Shown here one piece after another: positions 27,710-36,057 of a stretch of 64,000 nucleotides of DNA. The position numbers were made by a program, and so were the translations under genes. The notes beneath the pieces are model-generated. The model was given only the letters and a program-made list of their open reading frames with translations, was not told where the DNA came from and did no database searches. Source of the DNA: Chitinophagales bacterium (lineage in GTDB: Bacteria; Bacteroidota; Bacteroidia; Chitinophagales; CAVYQA01); the NCBI GenBank assembly GCA_963770495.1, contig CAVYQA010000030.1, positions 201,701 through 265,700 of the forward strand. Direction: 5' to 3'. Each line of letters opens with the position of its first letter. Within the stretch, counting starts at the first letter, position 1.

Positions 27710-28500
27710 GTCGTCGCCGTGTCTCCTTTTTGGCGCTGCCTTAAGCCTAAGCAGGGACACGGTAGTTTGTAGGCGCAACAACACATTTCATTTTCGTTTT
27801 GTACTTATAAGACTCAATGATTCCACATCTTTATAATGGGTTATTACAGTAATTTCGAAATCCAAACCTTCATAATATCTTGCCGAACTATCAACATAAT
27901 CGGTAAAACAAGATACTAACTGCCATTTCTTACTTACCGGGTTCGAATGAACATAATTCAGCTTCTGTAGCAAGAAATCCAACGTCAATATTATTTTTCC
28001 GTCAAAAGATGACTTAAAAACCTGGTGCTTTTTGCCTCTCTTCTTATCAGACGGCGTCACTTCCTTTTCCAGTATTTTTAAAATGGTATTTAGCTTTTTT
28101 TCTTTTAACCTTTCTACTATTTCATACGCCATAAAACGTTTACCATTGGATACCCAACGCTTAATGTCATATTTATTTTCTCTGAAATTTATAATCACAT
28201 GAACATGGTTGGGCATTATAACATAAGCAATGATCTGGTGATTATTTTTTCTTAAAACATTAAACCATTTATAAACTACATCATATGAATCTGTCATCTG
28301 AAAAAGAGAAAGCCAATTGCAACACGTGAACGTGATAAAATACAATCCATTCTTATCCTCTCTGTTTACCTTAACGGACATTCATATCGCTTTAATTCAC
28401 AAAATAAAAAAGATTCAGCTAATTTTAAGCTTAGATAATTCATTCCACCGTGTCCCTGCTTAGGCTTAAGGCAGCGCCAAAAAGGAGACACGGCGACGAC
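27710..28500. mobile_element. REPtron-like unit: a Y1/HUH transposase gene bracketed by perfect 54-bp inverted repeats
   Basis: 27710-27763 is the exact reverse complement of 28447-28500, checked base by base (54/54). Each arm contains an internal CCGTGTC...GACACGG stem. Confidence 0.8.
27788..28381 (-). CDS. REP-associated tyrosine (Y1, HUH) transposase-like protein
   Basis: ..GLYFITFTCCNWLSLF.. N-terminus, HUH motif IMPNHVHVI, and C-terminal YVHSNPVSKKWQL...YVDSSARYY, typical of the IS200/RAYT superfamily. Confidence 0.75.
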   Translation of the reverse strand: MSVKVNREDKNGLYFITFTCCNWLSLFQMTDSYDVVYKWFNVLRKNNHQIIAYVIMPNHVHVIINFRENKYDIKRWVSNGKRFMAYEIVERLKEKKLNTILKILEKEVTPSDKKRGKKHQVFKSSFDGKIILTLDFLLQKLNYVHSNPVSKKWQLVSCFTDYVDSSARYYEGLDFEITVITHYKDVESLSLISTKRK

Positions 28501-28948: not shown

Positions 28949-29932
28949 ATGGACTCAAAGAGTACAAAGTTTAACAGCATTTTAGATGTGTTAAAGAACT
29001 TTCCTGATGAAAAGTCTTGCAGGGAATATTTAGAGCGTTTACGTTGGCACGATGGTAAAATCGTTTGTCAGAAGTGCGGAAGTAATGATAAGATTTACAA
29101 GATACGTGACGGCAAACTTTATAAGTGTGCTAAGTGCCGTAAGCAGTTTACAGTTAGGTTGGGAACAATCTTTGAAGATAGCGCATTGCCTTTACAGACG
29201 TGGTTTATGGCATTGTTTCTTATTACAGCTCACAAGAAAGGCATAAGTAGTTTACAGTTGAGCCGTGACCTTTCTATCACCCAGAAAAGCGCATGGTTTG
29301 TGTTGCATAGAATACGTTATGCCGTTAAAACTAAGTCATTCAATAAGCCACTTGAAGGCATTGTGCAAATTGACGAAACTTACGTAGGCGGTCGAGGTCA
29401 AAACAAGCATCAAAGCCGTTGGGCTAAACGAACAAATGATACCGATTTAAGCCATTACCTAAGACCAACAGCAGGGCGCAGTACATTAACAAAAGCACCT
29501 GTTTTGGGTATCGTTGCTCAAGATGGTGACTTTGTGGGGTATTGTGTACCCGATGTTACAGGCAAAACCATTAAGCCGTTAATTCAAAAGCACGTTAAAG
29601 AGGGTTCTACTATTGTAACCGATGAATTTAGAATTTACCCTGCAATAACTAAAGAGTATTTACACCAAACTGTTAAGCACCGTTTAGGTGAATACGTTAG
29701 AGATGGTTATCACACTAATACAATAGAGGGCTTTTGGTCGTGGCTAAAGAGGTCAATATTTGGCATCTATCATCAAGTATCAAAAGAACATTTACAGGCG
29801 TATGTAGATGAGTGCGCCTACAAATACAACACTCGTAAAATAACCGATGTGGAACGATTTAATAAAACTCTGTCTTTACTTGACGGTAAATTAACTTATA
29901 AAGATTTAATAAAAAGGGGGGCAGAGAAATGA
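28949..29932 (+). CDS. IS1595-family DDE transposase (apparently intact)
   Basis: N-terminal Zn ribbon CQKCGS..YKCAKCRKQFTVRLGTIFEDS. DDE-type triad candidates VQIDETYVGG, IVTDEFRIY and HTNTIEGFWSWLKR. The stop overlaps the next start (ATGA at 29929-29932). Confidence 0.8.
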   Translation: MDSKSTKFNSILDVLKNFPDEKSCREYLERLRWHDGKIVCQKCGSNDKIYKIRDGKLYKCAKCRKQFTVRLGTIFEDSALPLQTWFMALFLITAHKKGISSLQLSRDLSITQKSAWFVLHRIRYAVKTKSFNKPLEGIVQIDETYVGGRGQNKHQSRWAKRTNDTDLSHYLRPTAGRSTLTKAPVLGIVAQDGDFVGYCVPDVTGKTIKPLIQKHVKEGSTIVTDEFRIYPAITKEYLHQTVKHRLGEYVRDGYHTNTIEGFWSWLKRSIFGIYHQVSKEHLQAYVDECAYKYNTRKITDVERFNKTLSLLDGKLTYKDLIKRGAEK

Positions 29933-30993
29933 GAAAGGAAATAAAAAATATATCTATATTTAATTCTAAATACGGAATACCGTTTACTATGGACAGAGTA
30001 GATTATCAATCAATGGTTATTCAGGATATAATAACATTGAACAAAAAAGGGGAATTAAATAAAACTCCTTGGTATCAAAGAAGGTCAGTTTGGAATACCC
30101 CTCAACAATCTTATTTGATAAATACCCTTTTGGAAAGAAAACCAATACCCGCAATTTATATTCGCTATTCTCTTGACCTTGAAAAGGGCGTAACAATAAA
30201 AGAGGTTGTAGATGGACAACAACGAGTAACTGCAATAATTGATTATATTGATAATGATAAATTTACCTCTTTTCATCCCGATTTAAAAAAGCGAGTAAAG
30301 TTTTCAAAATTATCCCCTATTCAACGAGAGAGATTTTTATTGACGGCTATCCCTGTGGGCTATTTGTTAGGAGCAAATGACGCAGATGTTATTGATATTT
30401 TTGCCCGTATTAATTCGGTTGCTAAAACCCTCAATAAGCAGGAAAAAAGAAATGCCTTATATAGCGGAGAATTTAAACAATTTGCTGTAAATGAATCTAC
30501 AAAGAGAGTAGAATTTTGGAAAGATTATCAAATATTTACCGGTAATAGTATCGCAAGAATGGATGAAGTACAATTTATTTCAGATGTTACTATTAATTTC
30601 ATAGAGGGCATTATAGCCTTTAATCAATCTAAAATTGATAAATATTATAAAGAGAATGAAGATGCGTTTGCAGAAAGTGAGGATATTTCAAAAAGATTTA
30701 ATAAAATTTTTGACGTTTTATTATCGTTAAATCCTAACACAATTAAACAAACTATATTTTTTAGGCAACCAATATTCTTTTCATTAATGCTTGTAATTGA
30801 CAGGATTAAAAAACCAAATATAAATATTATTCAAAAGGGACTTACAGAAATAGATAATAGATTTAATAGTGATGTTCCACTTGATAAAAGAACAAAGGAT
30901 GATTTAAATTTTTATAATGCCTGTTCGGCTACCACTCAATCATCTGAAAATAGAAAAACAAGAGATAAATATATAAGTAAATTTATTGAATAG
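29929..30993 (+). CDS. DUF262 (ParB/Srx-like NTPase/nuclease) domain protein without a DUF1524/HNH module
   Basis: TPWYQRRSVWNTPQQSYLINTLLERKPIPAIYI and VVDGQQRVTAIIDYI (DGQQR signature), then FARINSVAKTLNKQEKRNALY. At 354 aa there is no C-terminal His-Me nuclease motif visible. Confidence 0.75.
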   Translation: MRKEIKNISIFNSKYGIPFTMDRVDYQSMVIQDIITLNKKGELNKTPWYQRRSVWNTPQQSYLINTLLERKPIPAIYIRYSLDLEKGVTIKEVVDGQQRVTAIIDYIDNDKFTSFHPDLKKRVKFSKLSPIQRERFLLTAIPVGYLLGANDADVIDIFARINSVAKTLNKQEKRNALYSGEFKQFAVNESTKRVEFWKDYQIFTGNSIARMDEVQFISDVTINFIEGIIAFNQSKIDKYYKENEDAFAESEDISKRFNKIFDVLLSLNPNTIKQTIFFRQPIFFSLMLVIDRIKKPNINIIQKGLTEIDNRFNSDVPLDKRTKDDLNFYNACSATTQSSENRKTRDKYISKFIE

Positions 30994-31613
30994 TGCCGTC
31001 TGTAAATATTAATACCACTCACAAAAGAGGTATTGTAGATATTGGAAATTTAACTAATTATATTACTGATTCAGTAACATTAGAAGCCAAATATCAGTAT
31101 ATGATTGGCGAAGTAGTTATGCTAAGATTGTTTGGAATTTTAGAACATTCTATTGCTGAAATTGCCCTTAAATTAGCATGTGGTTGTAATTATAGAAACG
31201 GTAAAAATCCATTGGTTAAAAAACAATGTCGTAGCATGAGGGATGCTTTTTCTAATATGCTTGTATATAATAGAAGGAAACCAAAAAATCCAATGGATTT
31301 AAAGTGGACAAAGGCAAACTTGATAAAGGAAAGTATAGAACATGTATTAGATACTAATGATAGTTTTTATAATCAAATTCAAATTCATAATGCGGTAATT
31401 GATGAAATGAGAAGGATACGGAATCATGTTGCACATCGCTCTAATGGCACAAAAAAAGAATTTATTAGTATCCAGCAAAATATATATAACGGCAAAGTGG
31501 GTTTAACTATGGGGGCTTTTTTAGTATCTACTTCTCGTCACGCCACCTCAAACATTCAAAGATATATAGGAACTACAACTATTATTTTAAATGATATAAC
31601 AAGCGGAATATGA
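30993..31613 (+). CDS. Hypothetical protein with an Rx4H (HEPN-like) motif
   Basis: ..EMRRIRNHVAHRSNG.. contains R-N-x-x-A-H in an all-helical-looking context. The GTG start overlaps the DUF262 stop (TAGTG at 30991-30995). The start codon is uncertain. Confidence 0.4.
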   Translation: MPSVNINTTHKRGIVDIGNLTNYITDSVTLEAKYQYMIGEVVMLRLFGILEHSIAEIALKLACGCNYRNGKNPLVKKQCRSMRDAFSNMLVYNRRKPKNPMDLKWTKANLIKESIEHVLDTNDSFYNQIQIHNAVIDEMRRIRNHVAHRSNGTKKEFISIQQNIYNGKVGLTMGAFLVSTSRHATSNIQRYIGTTTIILNDITSGI

Positions 31614-31744
31614 AAGAAGAACAAAGGAAAAAGAAAACTAAATCAAAGCGACAACGGAACGAAAAGCCATTAAAGGTAGATATGCCTTTTGAGGAATTAA
31701 TGAGCCGGATAGTAAGAGTTAAACCAAAACATAAAAATCCTTAA
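31610..31744 (+). CDS. 44-aa highly basic micro-ORF (not in the ORF track)
   Basis: My own translation gives MKEEQRKKKTKSKRQRNEKPLKVDMPFEELMSRIVRVKPKHKNP. Its ATG overlaps the upstream stop (ATGA at 31610-31613). Its stop lies 2 nt before the next ATG (31747). Confidence 0.4.
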   Translation: MKEEQRKKKTKSKRQRNEKPLKVDMPFEELMSRIVRVKPKHKNP

Positions 31745-32397: not shown

Positions 32398-32787
32398 ATG
32401 AATATAAAGAAAAAGTATATTGGTGAAGTATATAACAATGAGTTTATAATAGAGCCTCCTGTTAATTTTTTTTATTCACCTGCCTTTCAGGTCCAAGGAG
32501 AAATTTTGGAGAATAAAAGTTCTATTTTTGTGAATTTAAAATTTAAATTACCGTCTCGGTTTGCAATTGTATTATTATTGGGTTTTCTTGCTTGTTCTAT
32601 TATTATCCCATTTATTTATCATTTATTTCAGGATGATACAATAAATAGTAGATTCCTACCCCTATTAATTATGATTCCATTCCTTGCTTACTTCGTGACG
32701 ATAATATCATTTAATGTTGAATTGAATTTGTTTATCAAACGATTTAGTAATGTTCAGCCGTGGCAGGTGTTCTGGGTTGAAAATTGA
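32398..32787 (+). CDS. Hypothetical 2-TM protein whose 3' end is encoded by a REP hairpin
   Basis: Hydrophobic segments FAIVLLLGFLACSIIIPFIY and LPLLIMIPFLAYFVTIISF. The last ~11 codons (..QPWQVFWVEN) lie inside the repeat at 32753-32803. Confidence 0.4.
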   Translation: MNIKKKYIGEVYNNEFIIEPPVNFFYSPAFQVQGEILENKSSIFVNLKFKLPSRFAIVLLLGFLACSIIIPFIYHLFQDDTINSRFLPLLIMIPFLAYFVTIISFNVELNLFIKRFSNVQPWQVFWVEN

Positions 32788-33441
32788 AAAGCCCACCTGC
32801 CACTGAAGTGCAGGTAAATAATGCGCTTTTTATATTTGTGCATGGAACCGGATAAACTTTATTTCTTTACTGCTACCATATTAGAATGGAAACCGTTATT
32901 GAAAGAAGATATCTTTAAGGATATAGTAATGGATAGCTTAAAGTTTTTAGTAAAGGAGAAAAGAATATTGCTGAGAGCATTTGTAATAATGCCCAATCAC
33001 ATACACCTGATGTGGAACATACTCACACCTAATAAACCATCAGATGTTCAGCGTGATTTTCTGAAATATACTTCGCAGCAGATAATTACAATACTGAAAA
33101 ACCGTAATGATGGTTATTGGCTTAATCAACTAAAAGTAAAAGCTGTTGATCGCCGCTACCAGGTTTGGGAACGCCGGCCGTTGGCAATAGAATTATATAC
33201 TCCTGACGTTAAATTCCAAAAATTAAAGTATATTCACCATAATCCTGTGCAGGAAAAATGGCAATTATGTAAGCTGCCTGAAGAGTATAAATATAGTTCA
33301 GCGGAGTTTTATTATTTGGAGAAACAGGAAGGGGATTTTATAACTCATTATTTGGAATATGGAATGTAGAAAGTATATGGCTCGGCTGCGGTGGCAGGTG
33401 GGCTTAGCTTTTTCCTTTGCTGAACACCTGCCACGGCTGAA
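32753..33441. mobile_element. Second REPtron-like unit: a Y1 transposase gene between two inverted REP hairpins
   Basis: The outer arm TTCAGCCGTGGCAGGTGTTC (32753-32772) is the reverse complement of 33422-33441 (20/20). The inner arm AAGCCCACCTGCCAC (32789-32803) is the reverse complement of 33391-33405 (15/15). Each side folds as GTGGCAGGTG / CACCTGCCAC. Confidence 0.75.
32821..33369 (+). CDS. REP-associated tyrosine (Y1, HUH) transposase-like protein, second type
   Basis: ..KLYFFTATILEWKPLL.., HUH motif IMPNHIHLMW, and YIHHNPVQEKWQL..YKYSSAEFYY. The start may be the internal ATG at 32842. Confidence 0.75.
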   Translation: MRFLYLCMEPDKLYFFTATILEWKPLLKEDIFKDIVMDSLKFLVKEKRILLRAFVIMPNHIHLMWNILTPNKPSDVQRDFLKYTSQQIITILKNRNDGYWLNQLKVKAVDRRYQVWERRPLAIELYTPDVKFQKLKYIHHNPVQEKWQLCKLPEEYKYSSAEFYYLEKQEGDFITHYLEYGM

Positions 33442-33715
33442 GTTTCTGCACTATTTCATAAGCCATAAATCGTTTTCCATTACTTACATATTGATTAATG
33501 CTTTTAGCGGTGTTGGCAATATGAATAAGCGCATGAACATGATTAGGCATAATTACAAAAGCGGCAATATTATTTCCGTCGCGTTTTAACGCATCAAACC
33601 AGTTGAATACAGATTGATAAGCATTTGCAATTTCAAATAGCGAAATCCATTTATGACAGGTTATAGAAATAAAATATATCCCTTCACCCTTTTCAATTTT
33701 TCTTCTGACAGTCAT
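33404..33715 (-). pseudogene. Truncated paralogue of the 27788..28381 Y1 transposase
   Basis: It aligns with the full-length copy over GIYFISITCHKWISLF..IMPNHVHALI..SNGKRFMAYEIVQKL. It then diverges into REP-encoded QPWQVFSKGKS and stops at 103 aa, against 197 aa for the full copy. Confidence 0.7.
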
Positions 33716-35098: not shown

Positions 35099-36057
35099 TC
35101 AAGGATTATTTGTAGGGGGCAACTGTTGAGGAATAAATGTACCTGTTTTTGTTGTTTCCTGTATTGGCATAACCGAACCTCCAGTACCTTGAGTTTTTAT
35201 AATTAAACTCGGCGGTAGCTTGTTTGTACCTATTTGTACAGGCGCTGCTCCCTTGCCGGGGGCAGGAAGATTATTAGAGGCAGGTACAACCAAATCATTT
35301 CTCATGCCCGCAGGATTTGGAGTTGCTCCGTTAAATACGATAAAAGGTTTACCGTTAATACCCTCATAATAAGCAAAATTTCTGTGCACTATACCGCCCA
35401 ATTGATTAATTCCACCAGTTATACCTTGCAGTGCTTCTTGTTTTGTAATTAATTTTCTGTTTGTGGGGTCAACACCATTATAATCATTTTGATACATAGG
35501 ATCATAAAATCTTGGTGTATTTGCCCTATTTACAACTTCATTTTTCTGCTCATCATTTAAACTATTCCAGGCACCTGTTTTTTGTCTAGTTGCACTAAAA
35601 GAAACGTTTCCTTGATCATTTATTGTGTAAAAATTGTCCTGATTATCATGGGTTCTAACTATTGCAAGTAAATTTCCCTGAGCATCTCTATAAAAATTAT
35701 CAAGTGCCCCTTTCCATTTGGGTCAATTTTTCTTATTGGGTCATCCAATACAAAAACGTAGGAACTCCAACCTGGATATTTCCGAAAATCTGGATCAACA
35801 GATTTAAAAATATTTAATCTTGAATCATAAATTCTCGCTCCAAAGTCTAAAATATTCCCGTTGCCTTCAATATCATTATCCTTATATTTTCCGTTGAAAC
35901 CAAAATGGTAACTTGTGTCATCAGACAGAGAGAAATTCCTACCGGGTTCAAGCATACCGCCCGTATAGTAATCCTGCGTAGCGTAACCCTTATCCCAATT
36001 GATTTTCACTGGATTCATGGGTAGTAAAAATATGTCAAAAATGGCAGTTTTATGCAA
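35099..36057 (-). pseudogene. Orphan RHS repeat-associated core and C-terminal toxin tip, split by a 1-nt frameshift
   Basis: ..YYTGGMLEPGRNF..YHFGFNGKYKDNDIEG..LDFGARIYDSRLNIFKSVDP..DPNGK is the RHS-core signature. Switching to the -1 frame between 35662 and 35722 continues as ..GALDNFYRDAQGNLL... into ORF 35099..35497. No RHS shell lies upstream. Confidence 0.65.

Follow-up and report, generated by a model that had tools for sequence, protein, structure and literature searches.

Here, we analyzed a 64,000-nucleotide stretch of a Chitinophagales genome (contig CAVYQA010000030.1 of assembly GCA_963770495.1; hereafter, the window), with a focus on two adjacent genes, one encoding a 334-amino acid (aa) protein with a DUF262 domain (29989..30993) and the other a 206-aa HEPN-like protein (30993..31613). 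We consider it likely that the two genes are translationally coupled and together encode a DUF262+HEPN defense against phages, similar to PD-T4-2, in which a sensor would switch on an RNase. Within this known kind of defense, the pair belongs to a divergent branch that is found mainly in Bacteroidota and has so far gone unannotated. The proposal builds on direct observations, namely homology signals, conservation of motifs, the pairing of the two genes across loci, their patchy, mobile distribution and their low G+C content.

The effector gene and its conserved motif

A first-pass annotation, made from the letters of the window alone, had singled out the 206-aa open reading frame (ORF) and the motif RRIRNHVAH within it, and both are indeed present (Table 1). 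In a single sequence, an Rx4H motif is not beyond chance, because 36% of shuffled versions of the 206-aa protein carry one, and 14% carry the stricter R[polar]x3H; the motif becomes significant because it is conserved across homologues. A word-indexed search recovered only 10 close relatives of the effector (46-63% identity; alignment A1), and an exhaustive hidden Markov model search of 1.84 billion representatives yielded 292 effector clusters at E<=1e-3, nearly all of them stand-alone proteins of ~200 aa. In the alignment of 93 full-length homologues that are 18-49% identical to the query (alignment A2), no column is invariant other than R143 and H148, each present in 93/93 sequences, so that the motif withstands the check, conservation among homologues, that the first-pass annotation had itself proposed. 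N144 is retained in 88 of the 93 sequences (with H at that site in 4), A147 in 87, E40 in 91 and R45 in 90. The string R-N-H-V-A-H, which had been read as conserved in its entirety, holds at both ends and at the asparagine but not at its middle histidine, which is variable. The predicted catalytic pair is R143...H148, and H145 would not be part of it, because this residue is kept in just 42 of the 93 homologues.

The GTG start codon had been assumed from the 1-nt overlap with the upstream gene, and a downstream ATG had been considered as the alternative. We accept the GTG because residues 1-36 are conserved, with L20, Y23, L30 and Q35 invariant in alignment A1, because residues 6-29 form a confident helix in the AlphaFold2 model and because the junction between the two genes is itself conserved. 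The same TAGTG, in which the TAG stop of the DUF262 gene shares its last base with the GTG, recurs in four loci from other species (L002, L004, L009 and L011), that is, in five loci including the window, and two further loci (L012 and L013) have TAATG instead. This stop/start overlap suggests translational coupling of the DUF262 and HEPN genes.

Affinity of the effector with HEPN domains

HEPN domains have been defined by two alpha-hairpins, helices 2 and 3 of which are separated by an insert, an Rx4-6H motif at the end of helix 3, a polar residue (N/D/H) following the arginine, and an acidic residue in helix 2, typically within Ex3[KR] (PMC3710099). The AlphaFold2 model of the effector built with the 93-sequence alignment (predicted local distance difference test, pLDDT, 97.8; predicted template-modeling score 0.92) consists almost entirely of helix, nine helices in all, in line with the predominantly helical character previously surmised from the sequence. 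The first hairpin (residues 6-29 and 32-62) bears E40 and R45 and is followed by a 60-residue insert with short helices (63-123); then come helices 124-131 and 133-148, the latter ending exactly at H148, a helix at 151-165 and two further C-terminal helices. The effector contains the Rx4-6H motif, the polar residue after the arginine and the acidic residue in helix 2 (E40), and its helix layout matches the published HEPN layout, as judged by helix order and boundaries alone.

Profile comparisons point in the same direction. The top Pfam match of the 206-aa protein is HEPN_RiboL-PSP (PF18735; E=2.6e-4, 21.4 bits), and this match extends beyond the motif because the alignment spans residues 45-162 of the query (positions 37-173 of the 191 in the model). 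A homologue that is 41% identical to the query (P0016) covers positions 5-176 of the same model with 24.2 bits. When each of the 93 members was scanned separately (E<=0.01), PF18735 was matched by 16 of them, with a best E of 1.4e-7, and the other HEPN families encountered were Swt1-HEPN (8 members), Cthe_2314-HEPN (2) and Apea-HEPN (1); no non-HEPN family recurred in more than 2 members. A PADLOC scan of the effector family returned only weak matches, to Csx1, CARF-HEPN, Cas13-ApeA, PDC-M34B and, in one case, SspH, and an attempt to bridge the family to PF18735 through its most divergent members yielded just weak matches across the motif region.

Several results weigh against the assignment to HEPN. 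The gathering score of PF18735 is 28.4 bits, above the scores of both the query and P0016, and no HEPN Pfam model reaches its threshold for the query. The spacing of the acidic motif is E-x4-R, one residue longer than the usual E-x3-[KR]. Foldseek searches of the PDB with two AlphaFold2 models (pLDDT 85.8 and 97.8) produced no significant match (best E ~1), and a search of BFVD with the pLDDT 97.8 model was equally void of significant hits, so that nothing better than E ~0.4 was obtained across the two databases; the HepT-type HEPN toxins 7bxo and 6m6w that appear in the PDB list are at chance level (template-modeling scores of 0.40-0.49, target-normalized). Searches of the PDB sequences with the effector, using phmmer and profiles, likewise found nothing relevant. 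Neither, however, was any alternative fold significant in the Foldseek searches of PDB and BFVD.

These results bear directly on the alternative that the 206-aa protein is unrelated to HEPN and is instead a helical adaptor or regulator in which the R/H pair binds a ligand or a partner. In favor of it, the query scores below every curated profile threshold and has no significant structural neighbors in PDB and BFVD, and an Rx4H arises by chance in about a third of shuffles. Nevertheless, we find this alternative very unlikely: an incidental R/H pair would hardly provide the sole invariant residues in 93 divergent sequences, with asparagine next to the arginine in all but five; the sub-threshold matches converge on at least four HEPN families and on no other family in more than 2 members; and, as in HEPN domains, helix 3 terminates precisely with the motif and helix 2 carries a conserved glutamate. 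The invariant Rx4H, the polar residue, the helix-2 acid and the HEPN-biased profile matches thus uphold the identity that was initially assigned, albeit without a significant Foldseek match, and we conclude that the protein is very probably a HEPN-type RNase. At the level of sequence, the reading of the pair as HEPN with DUF262 is well supported, the fold being so far without independent confirmation. What is not supported is the suggestion of a possible new HEPN family, given that the family sits at the edge of PF18735, with the query somewhat below the gathering score of that model, which 16 of the 93 members match.

The DUF262 partner

The mechanically called DUF262 ORF begins at 29929 and encodes 354 aa. 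Its homologues have 333 aa, their alignment with this ORF begins at its residue 21, and the methionine at 29989 (M1) is conserved in at least 97% of 112 sequences, because of which the true gene most likely starts with the ATG at 29989. The apparent 4-nt overlap with the transposase ORF located upstream is an artefact of the in-frame 20-codon extension of the DUF262 ORF (29929..29988), and 56 nt separate the end of the transposase gene from the true start.

In Pfam, the DUF262 ORF matches GmrSD_N (E=2.6e-19), and neither DUF1524 nor any other second domain was found in the 354 aa (E<=1). The PADLOC model of NsnA, the DUF262 protein of the Menshen system, is matched at full length (residues 23-354 aligned to model positions 45-380 of 385) with E=1e-31, compared with E=1e-20 and a score ~35 bits lower for PD-T4-2_A. 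The same preference is seen in ten DUF262 relatives, which score 93-113 bits with NsnA versus 57-87 bits with PD-T4-2_A; NsnA always scores higher, and only NsnA is consistently matched at full length. Motifs I (QRRSVW), II (DGQQR) and III (FARIN), each at least 97% conserved among the 112 sequences, correspond to the nucleoside triphosphatase (NTPase)/sensor motifs described for GmrSD, SspE and NsnA (PMC12065111). The partner family comprises more than 1100 clusters at 90% identity.

Pairing across loci and competing explanations

In all 16 loci examined, namely, the window and 15 others, the gene directly preceding the HEPN gene encodes the DUF262 protein. The set consists of Bacteroidota, one Brocadiaceae genome and one IMG/VR contig, and includes six GTDB species genomes (Mucilaginibacter, Paucihalobacter, Chitinophagaceae, Bacteroidia, Limimorpha and the Brocadiaceae planctomycete); some of the contigs were found through HEPN homologues, and three loci were selected by their DUF262 genes, irrespective of the HEPN gene. 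Carriers of the pair include Mucilaginibacter gotjawali (AP017313, around 4.152 Mb) and Flavobacterium sp. ANB. The partnership with DUF262 noticed in the first pass is borne out by all these loci, including the latter three, and the HEPN-like protein is supported as an obligate partner of the DUF262 protein. Identity to the window proteins is 53-67% for the sensor and 25-58% for the effector, and this combination of slower sensor and faster effector divergence is the pattern that would be expected of a conserved sensor coupled to a fast-evolving effector. There is no third conserved gene at the pair in the 16 loci. A 44-aa, very basic ORF (31610..31744, plus strand; MKEEQRKKKTKSKRQRNEKPLKVD...), which shares 4 nt (ATGA) with the HEPN gene at its stop codon and is called as a gene in one other locus (L001), was considered as a third component and rejected, being conserved in no other locus; it is probably outside the system because it is missing from the other DUF262-HEPN loci.

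Pairing alone would also suit a toxin-antitoxin-like arrangement, in which the HEPN protein is a toxin with constitutive RNase activity that the DUF262 protein, as a stoichiometric antitoxin or inhibitor, keeps in check, so that defense or addiction would follow from the loss of the inhibitor and not from the sensing of DNA. The tight two-gene operon with its stop/start overlap and the occurrence of the pair as an isolated insertion between housekeeping genes fit this scheme, and many stand-alone HEPN proteins are toxins of such systems, for instance, HepT/MntA (cited in the DARNA preprint). However, three NTPase motifs as conserved as those of the DUF262 protein would be needless in a passive inhibitor; the DUF262 domains of GmrSD, SspE and BrxU act as sensor/NTPases that turn on a nuclease; the window contains neither MNT nor any other known antitoxin; and a larger, slower-evolving partner is atypical of an antitoxin. 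Taken together, these considerations make a toxin-antitoxin system an unlikely explanation. The region at 27-34 kb was also searched for the kind of RNA antitoxin or repeats known from AbiF-type systems, and it has neither an Rfam match nor meaningful tandem repeats.

A different division of labor would have two nucleases acting in parallel, with the DUF262/ParB-like protein nicking or cutting (modified) DNA and the HEPN protein attacking RNA as an ungated second line. Indeed, ParB-like domains have been treated as endoDNase domains of restriction-modification systems, and HEPN RNases have been proposed to back up DNA-targeting modules (Anantharaman et al. 2013, PMC3710099). Still, the characterized DUF262 domains are NTPase sensors, with the DNA being cut by DUF1524, which is not found here, and the strict 1:1 pairing along with the coupling favors a single complex; we hold the dual-nuclease scheme to be quite unlikely. 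All three rival explanations are judged less likely than a sensor-gated RNase because the NTPase motifs are conserved, the pairing is strict and the catalytic residues are invariant.

A putative sensor-to-RNase mechanism

In GmrSD, BrxU and SspE, DUF262 senses modified DNA, and hydrolysis of nucleoside triphosphates (NTPs) switches on a fused DUF1524 DNase (PMC10952713; PMC12065111). The DUF262 protein of the window shares with these proteins the N-terminal DUF262 domain, with the QRxxxW, DGxQR and FxxxN motifs, and the helical middle domain that follows. It differs from them in that the pair is devoid of a DUF1524 His-Me nuclease: the fused DNase is replaced by the translationally coupled HEPN protein, so that the nuclease apparently acts in trans as an RNase rather than in cis as a DNase.

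By analogy, we infer an RNase activity, a direction of signaling from sensor to effector, a trigger and an RNA target. The DUF262/ParBDB-like protein, with its DNA-binding-type helical half, would recognize a feature of invading, possibly modified, DNA and, via NTP binding or hydrolysis, would release or activate the HEPN RNase, which would accordingly be gated by its partner, as the first-pass annotation had surmised. The activated RNase would probably be a dimer with a composite R/H site, in which the predicted active site is formed by R143, N144 and H148, probably aided by E40. Cleavage of RNA (tRNA or mRNA) would halt translation and phage growth, probably resulting in abortive infection. 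One aspect of the window does not sit well with a functional module, namely, the insertion of an IS1595-family element just upstream of the DUF262 gene, which may have displaced the native promoter, so that this particular copy is possibly mis-expressed. A scan for sigma-70 promoters and terminators performed no better than on shuffles, such a scan being unsuited to Bacteroidota.

Genomic context and mobility

The G+C content of the pair is 29-31%, compared with 39% for the window and 45% for the neighboring housekeeping genes, which encode formiminotransferase-cyclodeaminase-like and ammonium-transporter-like proteins. The entire stretch between 29.9 and 32.8 kb is low in G+C (27-32%), consistent with horizontal acquisition. 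This island is flanked by IS200/Y1-type genes that, with their bracketing repeats, look like repetitive extragenic palindrome (REP)-associated (RAYT-like) transposase units, and the acquired segment may also include the genes for two small predicted membrane proteins, downstream of the pair, for which Pfam, NCBIfam and PADLOC gave no match (Table 1).

Table 1. Coordinates of the DUF262-HEPN pair, its motifs and its neighbors in the window
Feature	Position	Strand	Basis or remark
IS200/Y1-type transposase-like gene	27788..28381	-	perfect 54-nt inverted repeat 27710-27763 / 28447-28500
IS1595-family transposase gene (Zn-ribbon + DDE)	28949..29932	+	NCBIfam E=3e-59
Sensor gene, DUF262 (ParB-like NTPase), 334 aa, C-terminal helical NsnA-C/ParBDB-like half	29989..30993	+	Pfam, PADLOC, homologues
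TAGTG junction (DUF262 stop / HEPN GTG start, 1-nt overlap)	30991..30995	+	ORF calls and conservation among loci
Effector gene, stand-alone HEPN-like protein, 206 aa, predicted metal-independent RNase	30993..31613	+	GTG start
Codons for E40...R45, predicted helix 2 (H32-62)	31110..31127	+	AlphaFold2 helices and conservation in 93 homologues
RRIRNHVAH, residues 140-148	31410..31436	+	68-72% along the 206-aa protein
Codons for R143-N-H-V-A-H148 (Rx4H motif)	31419..31436	+	C-terminal end of predicted helix 3 (H133-148)
Small predicted membrane protein, 152 aa	31747..32205	+	~29-30% G+C
Small predicted membrane protein, 129 aa	32398..32787	+	~29-30% G+C
IS200/Y1-type transposase-like gene	32821..33369	+	56-nt bracketing repeat (32753..33441), 79% complementary
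Shorter IS200/Y1-type transposase-like gene	33404..33715	-	

The IS1595-DUF262-HEPN arrangement is also found in a 4-kb Logan contig (L001). The possibility that the pair is cargo of IS1595 was considered and rejected, given that no convincing terminal inverted repeats enclose the pair and there is no second copy of the insertion sequence in the window.

The contexts of the pair are unrelated between loci, and some copies are isolated between unrelated housekeeping genes. In the locus with the most divergent of the close homologues (P0011; L007, 1..16567), the pair is surrounded by a clear defense island, with genes for a SNF2 helicase, an HNH protein, NERD, MZB (DUF1998), a helicase-like protein of 1380 aa and an MmeI-type enzyme that is interrupted by an rve integrase gene. 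In the IMG/VR contig (UViG_3300046507_000598; L017, 924..7925), which is 41.8 kb long and predicted to be viral, the pair is close to one end, flanked by the genes for a Toprim-domain protein of 939 aa and a phage-type integrase (Arm-DNA-bind_3 + Phage_int_M), and looks like the cargo of an integrative element or prophage. A tblastn search of plasmid and phage collections found no match to the pair.

Elsewhere in the window, a 132-aa ORF (35659..36057, minus strand) contains what resembles the end of an Rhs/YD-repeat core (...GARIYDSRLNIFKSVDP...) followed by a short variable tail, next to another ORF of 132 aa; it may be an orphan C-terminal cassette of a polymorphic toxin.

Relationship to known DUF262 and HEPN systems

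Among characterized HEPN proteins, the effector differs from HepT of the HEPN-MNT (HepT/MntA) systems in that no nucleotidyltransferase ORF adjoins it in the window or in the related loci. The system of the DARNA preprint was examined as a possible match and dismissed, as it is a different, single-protein HEPN system, and the preprint merely cites PD-T4-2. The closest affinity is with the RiboL-PSP-HEPN family (PF18735), the best profile match of the effector, which covers a near-whole domain and in which the Rx4H is kept. This family has been recorded 'in operon with ParB', alongside several other HEPN-ParB/DUF262 links (Anantharaman et al. 2013, PMC3710099), which agrees with the DUF262 operon seen in all 16 loci; a difference is that the window effector is not fused to an endoribonuclease L-PSP domain.

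The experimentally validated counterpart is PD-T4-2, a two-gene, 1540-bp system from E. coli ECOR65 described as 'DUF262, HEPN' (Vassallo et al. 2022; PMC9519451). The system confers protection against T4 on E. coli, in the strain of origin as well as after cloning, and deletion of the native copy restores plaquing of T4; the best HHpred match of its B protein is PF18735 HEPN_RiboL-PSP, at 97.8% (PMC9519451). Later papers count PD-T4-2 among the uncharacterized DUF262 systems that lack DUF1524. We compared the pair with this system, which lies at 338334-339873 of whole-genome shotgun contig QOYX01000002 and consists of the A protein RCO39066.1 and a B protein from an unannotated ORF, through the PADLOC models and the published description. 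The order of the genes is the same, with a DUF262-only A protein followed by a small stand-alone HEPN B protein, the lengths are similar (1540 bp versus 1625 bp here), the Rx4H is located ~70% along the B protein, and the window DUF262 protein is recognized by the PD-T4-2_A model. The differences are that the DUF262 protein is closer to NsnA, that the window effector is ~40 aa longer and that its family is spread over Bacteroidota and Planctomycetota, whereas PD-T4-2 comes from Enterobacteria. Furthermore, and weighing against our proposal, the PD-T4-2_B model is matched neither by the query (E<=1) nor by the 93 relatives (E<=0.01), so that the effector family may not be orthologous to the validated one. 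A new partnership of HEPN with DUF262 is not supported: the association itself is not new, given the ParB-operon record of 2013 and the validation of PD-T4-2 in 2022.

In public databases, nearly all members of the effector family are labeled 'hypothetical protein' and carry no Pfam domain. The PADLOC models would call the locus neither PD-T4-2 nor Menshen because PD-T4-2_B is unmatched and NsnB and NsnC are not found. Recognition of the pair would add a DUF262+HEPN defense module to the annotation of Bacteroidota genomes, and the deep set of co-evolving sensor/effector pairs would aid in modeling the complex, in choosing mutants and in understanding how DUF262 sensors control RNases.

The kinship of the sensor leads to Menshen (NsnABC; Millman 2022; Li et al. 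2025, PMC12065111), which is predicted to use RNase effectors; HEPN is not mentioned in PMC12065111, including among its NsnC effector domains. The window DUF262 protein matches NsnA over its full length, both in the ParB-DUF262 part and in the C-terminal helical ParBDB-type domain. The pair differs from Menshen in that neither the window nor the 15 other loci contain genes for the NsnB ABC-ATPase or the NsnC inPIN-nuclease; neither PADLOC nor Pfam gave a match for the ORFs downstream of the pair in the window (44, 152 and 129 aa), and no ATPase gene follows the pair elsewhere. It is conceivable, although we put this forward tentatively and lean toward the opposite, that the pair is not orthologous to PD-T4-2 and represents an independently assembled, mainly Bacteroidota system in which an NsnA sensor of the Menshen type acts on a fast-evolving HEPN RNase with no NsnB ATPase as transducer in between, in effect a 'two-gene Menshen'. 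If so, DUF262 sensors would be able to control RNase effectors directly, and the effectors would constitute a distinct, unannotated HEPN clade of ~300 clusters at 50% identity.

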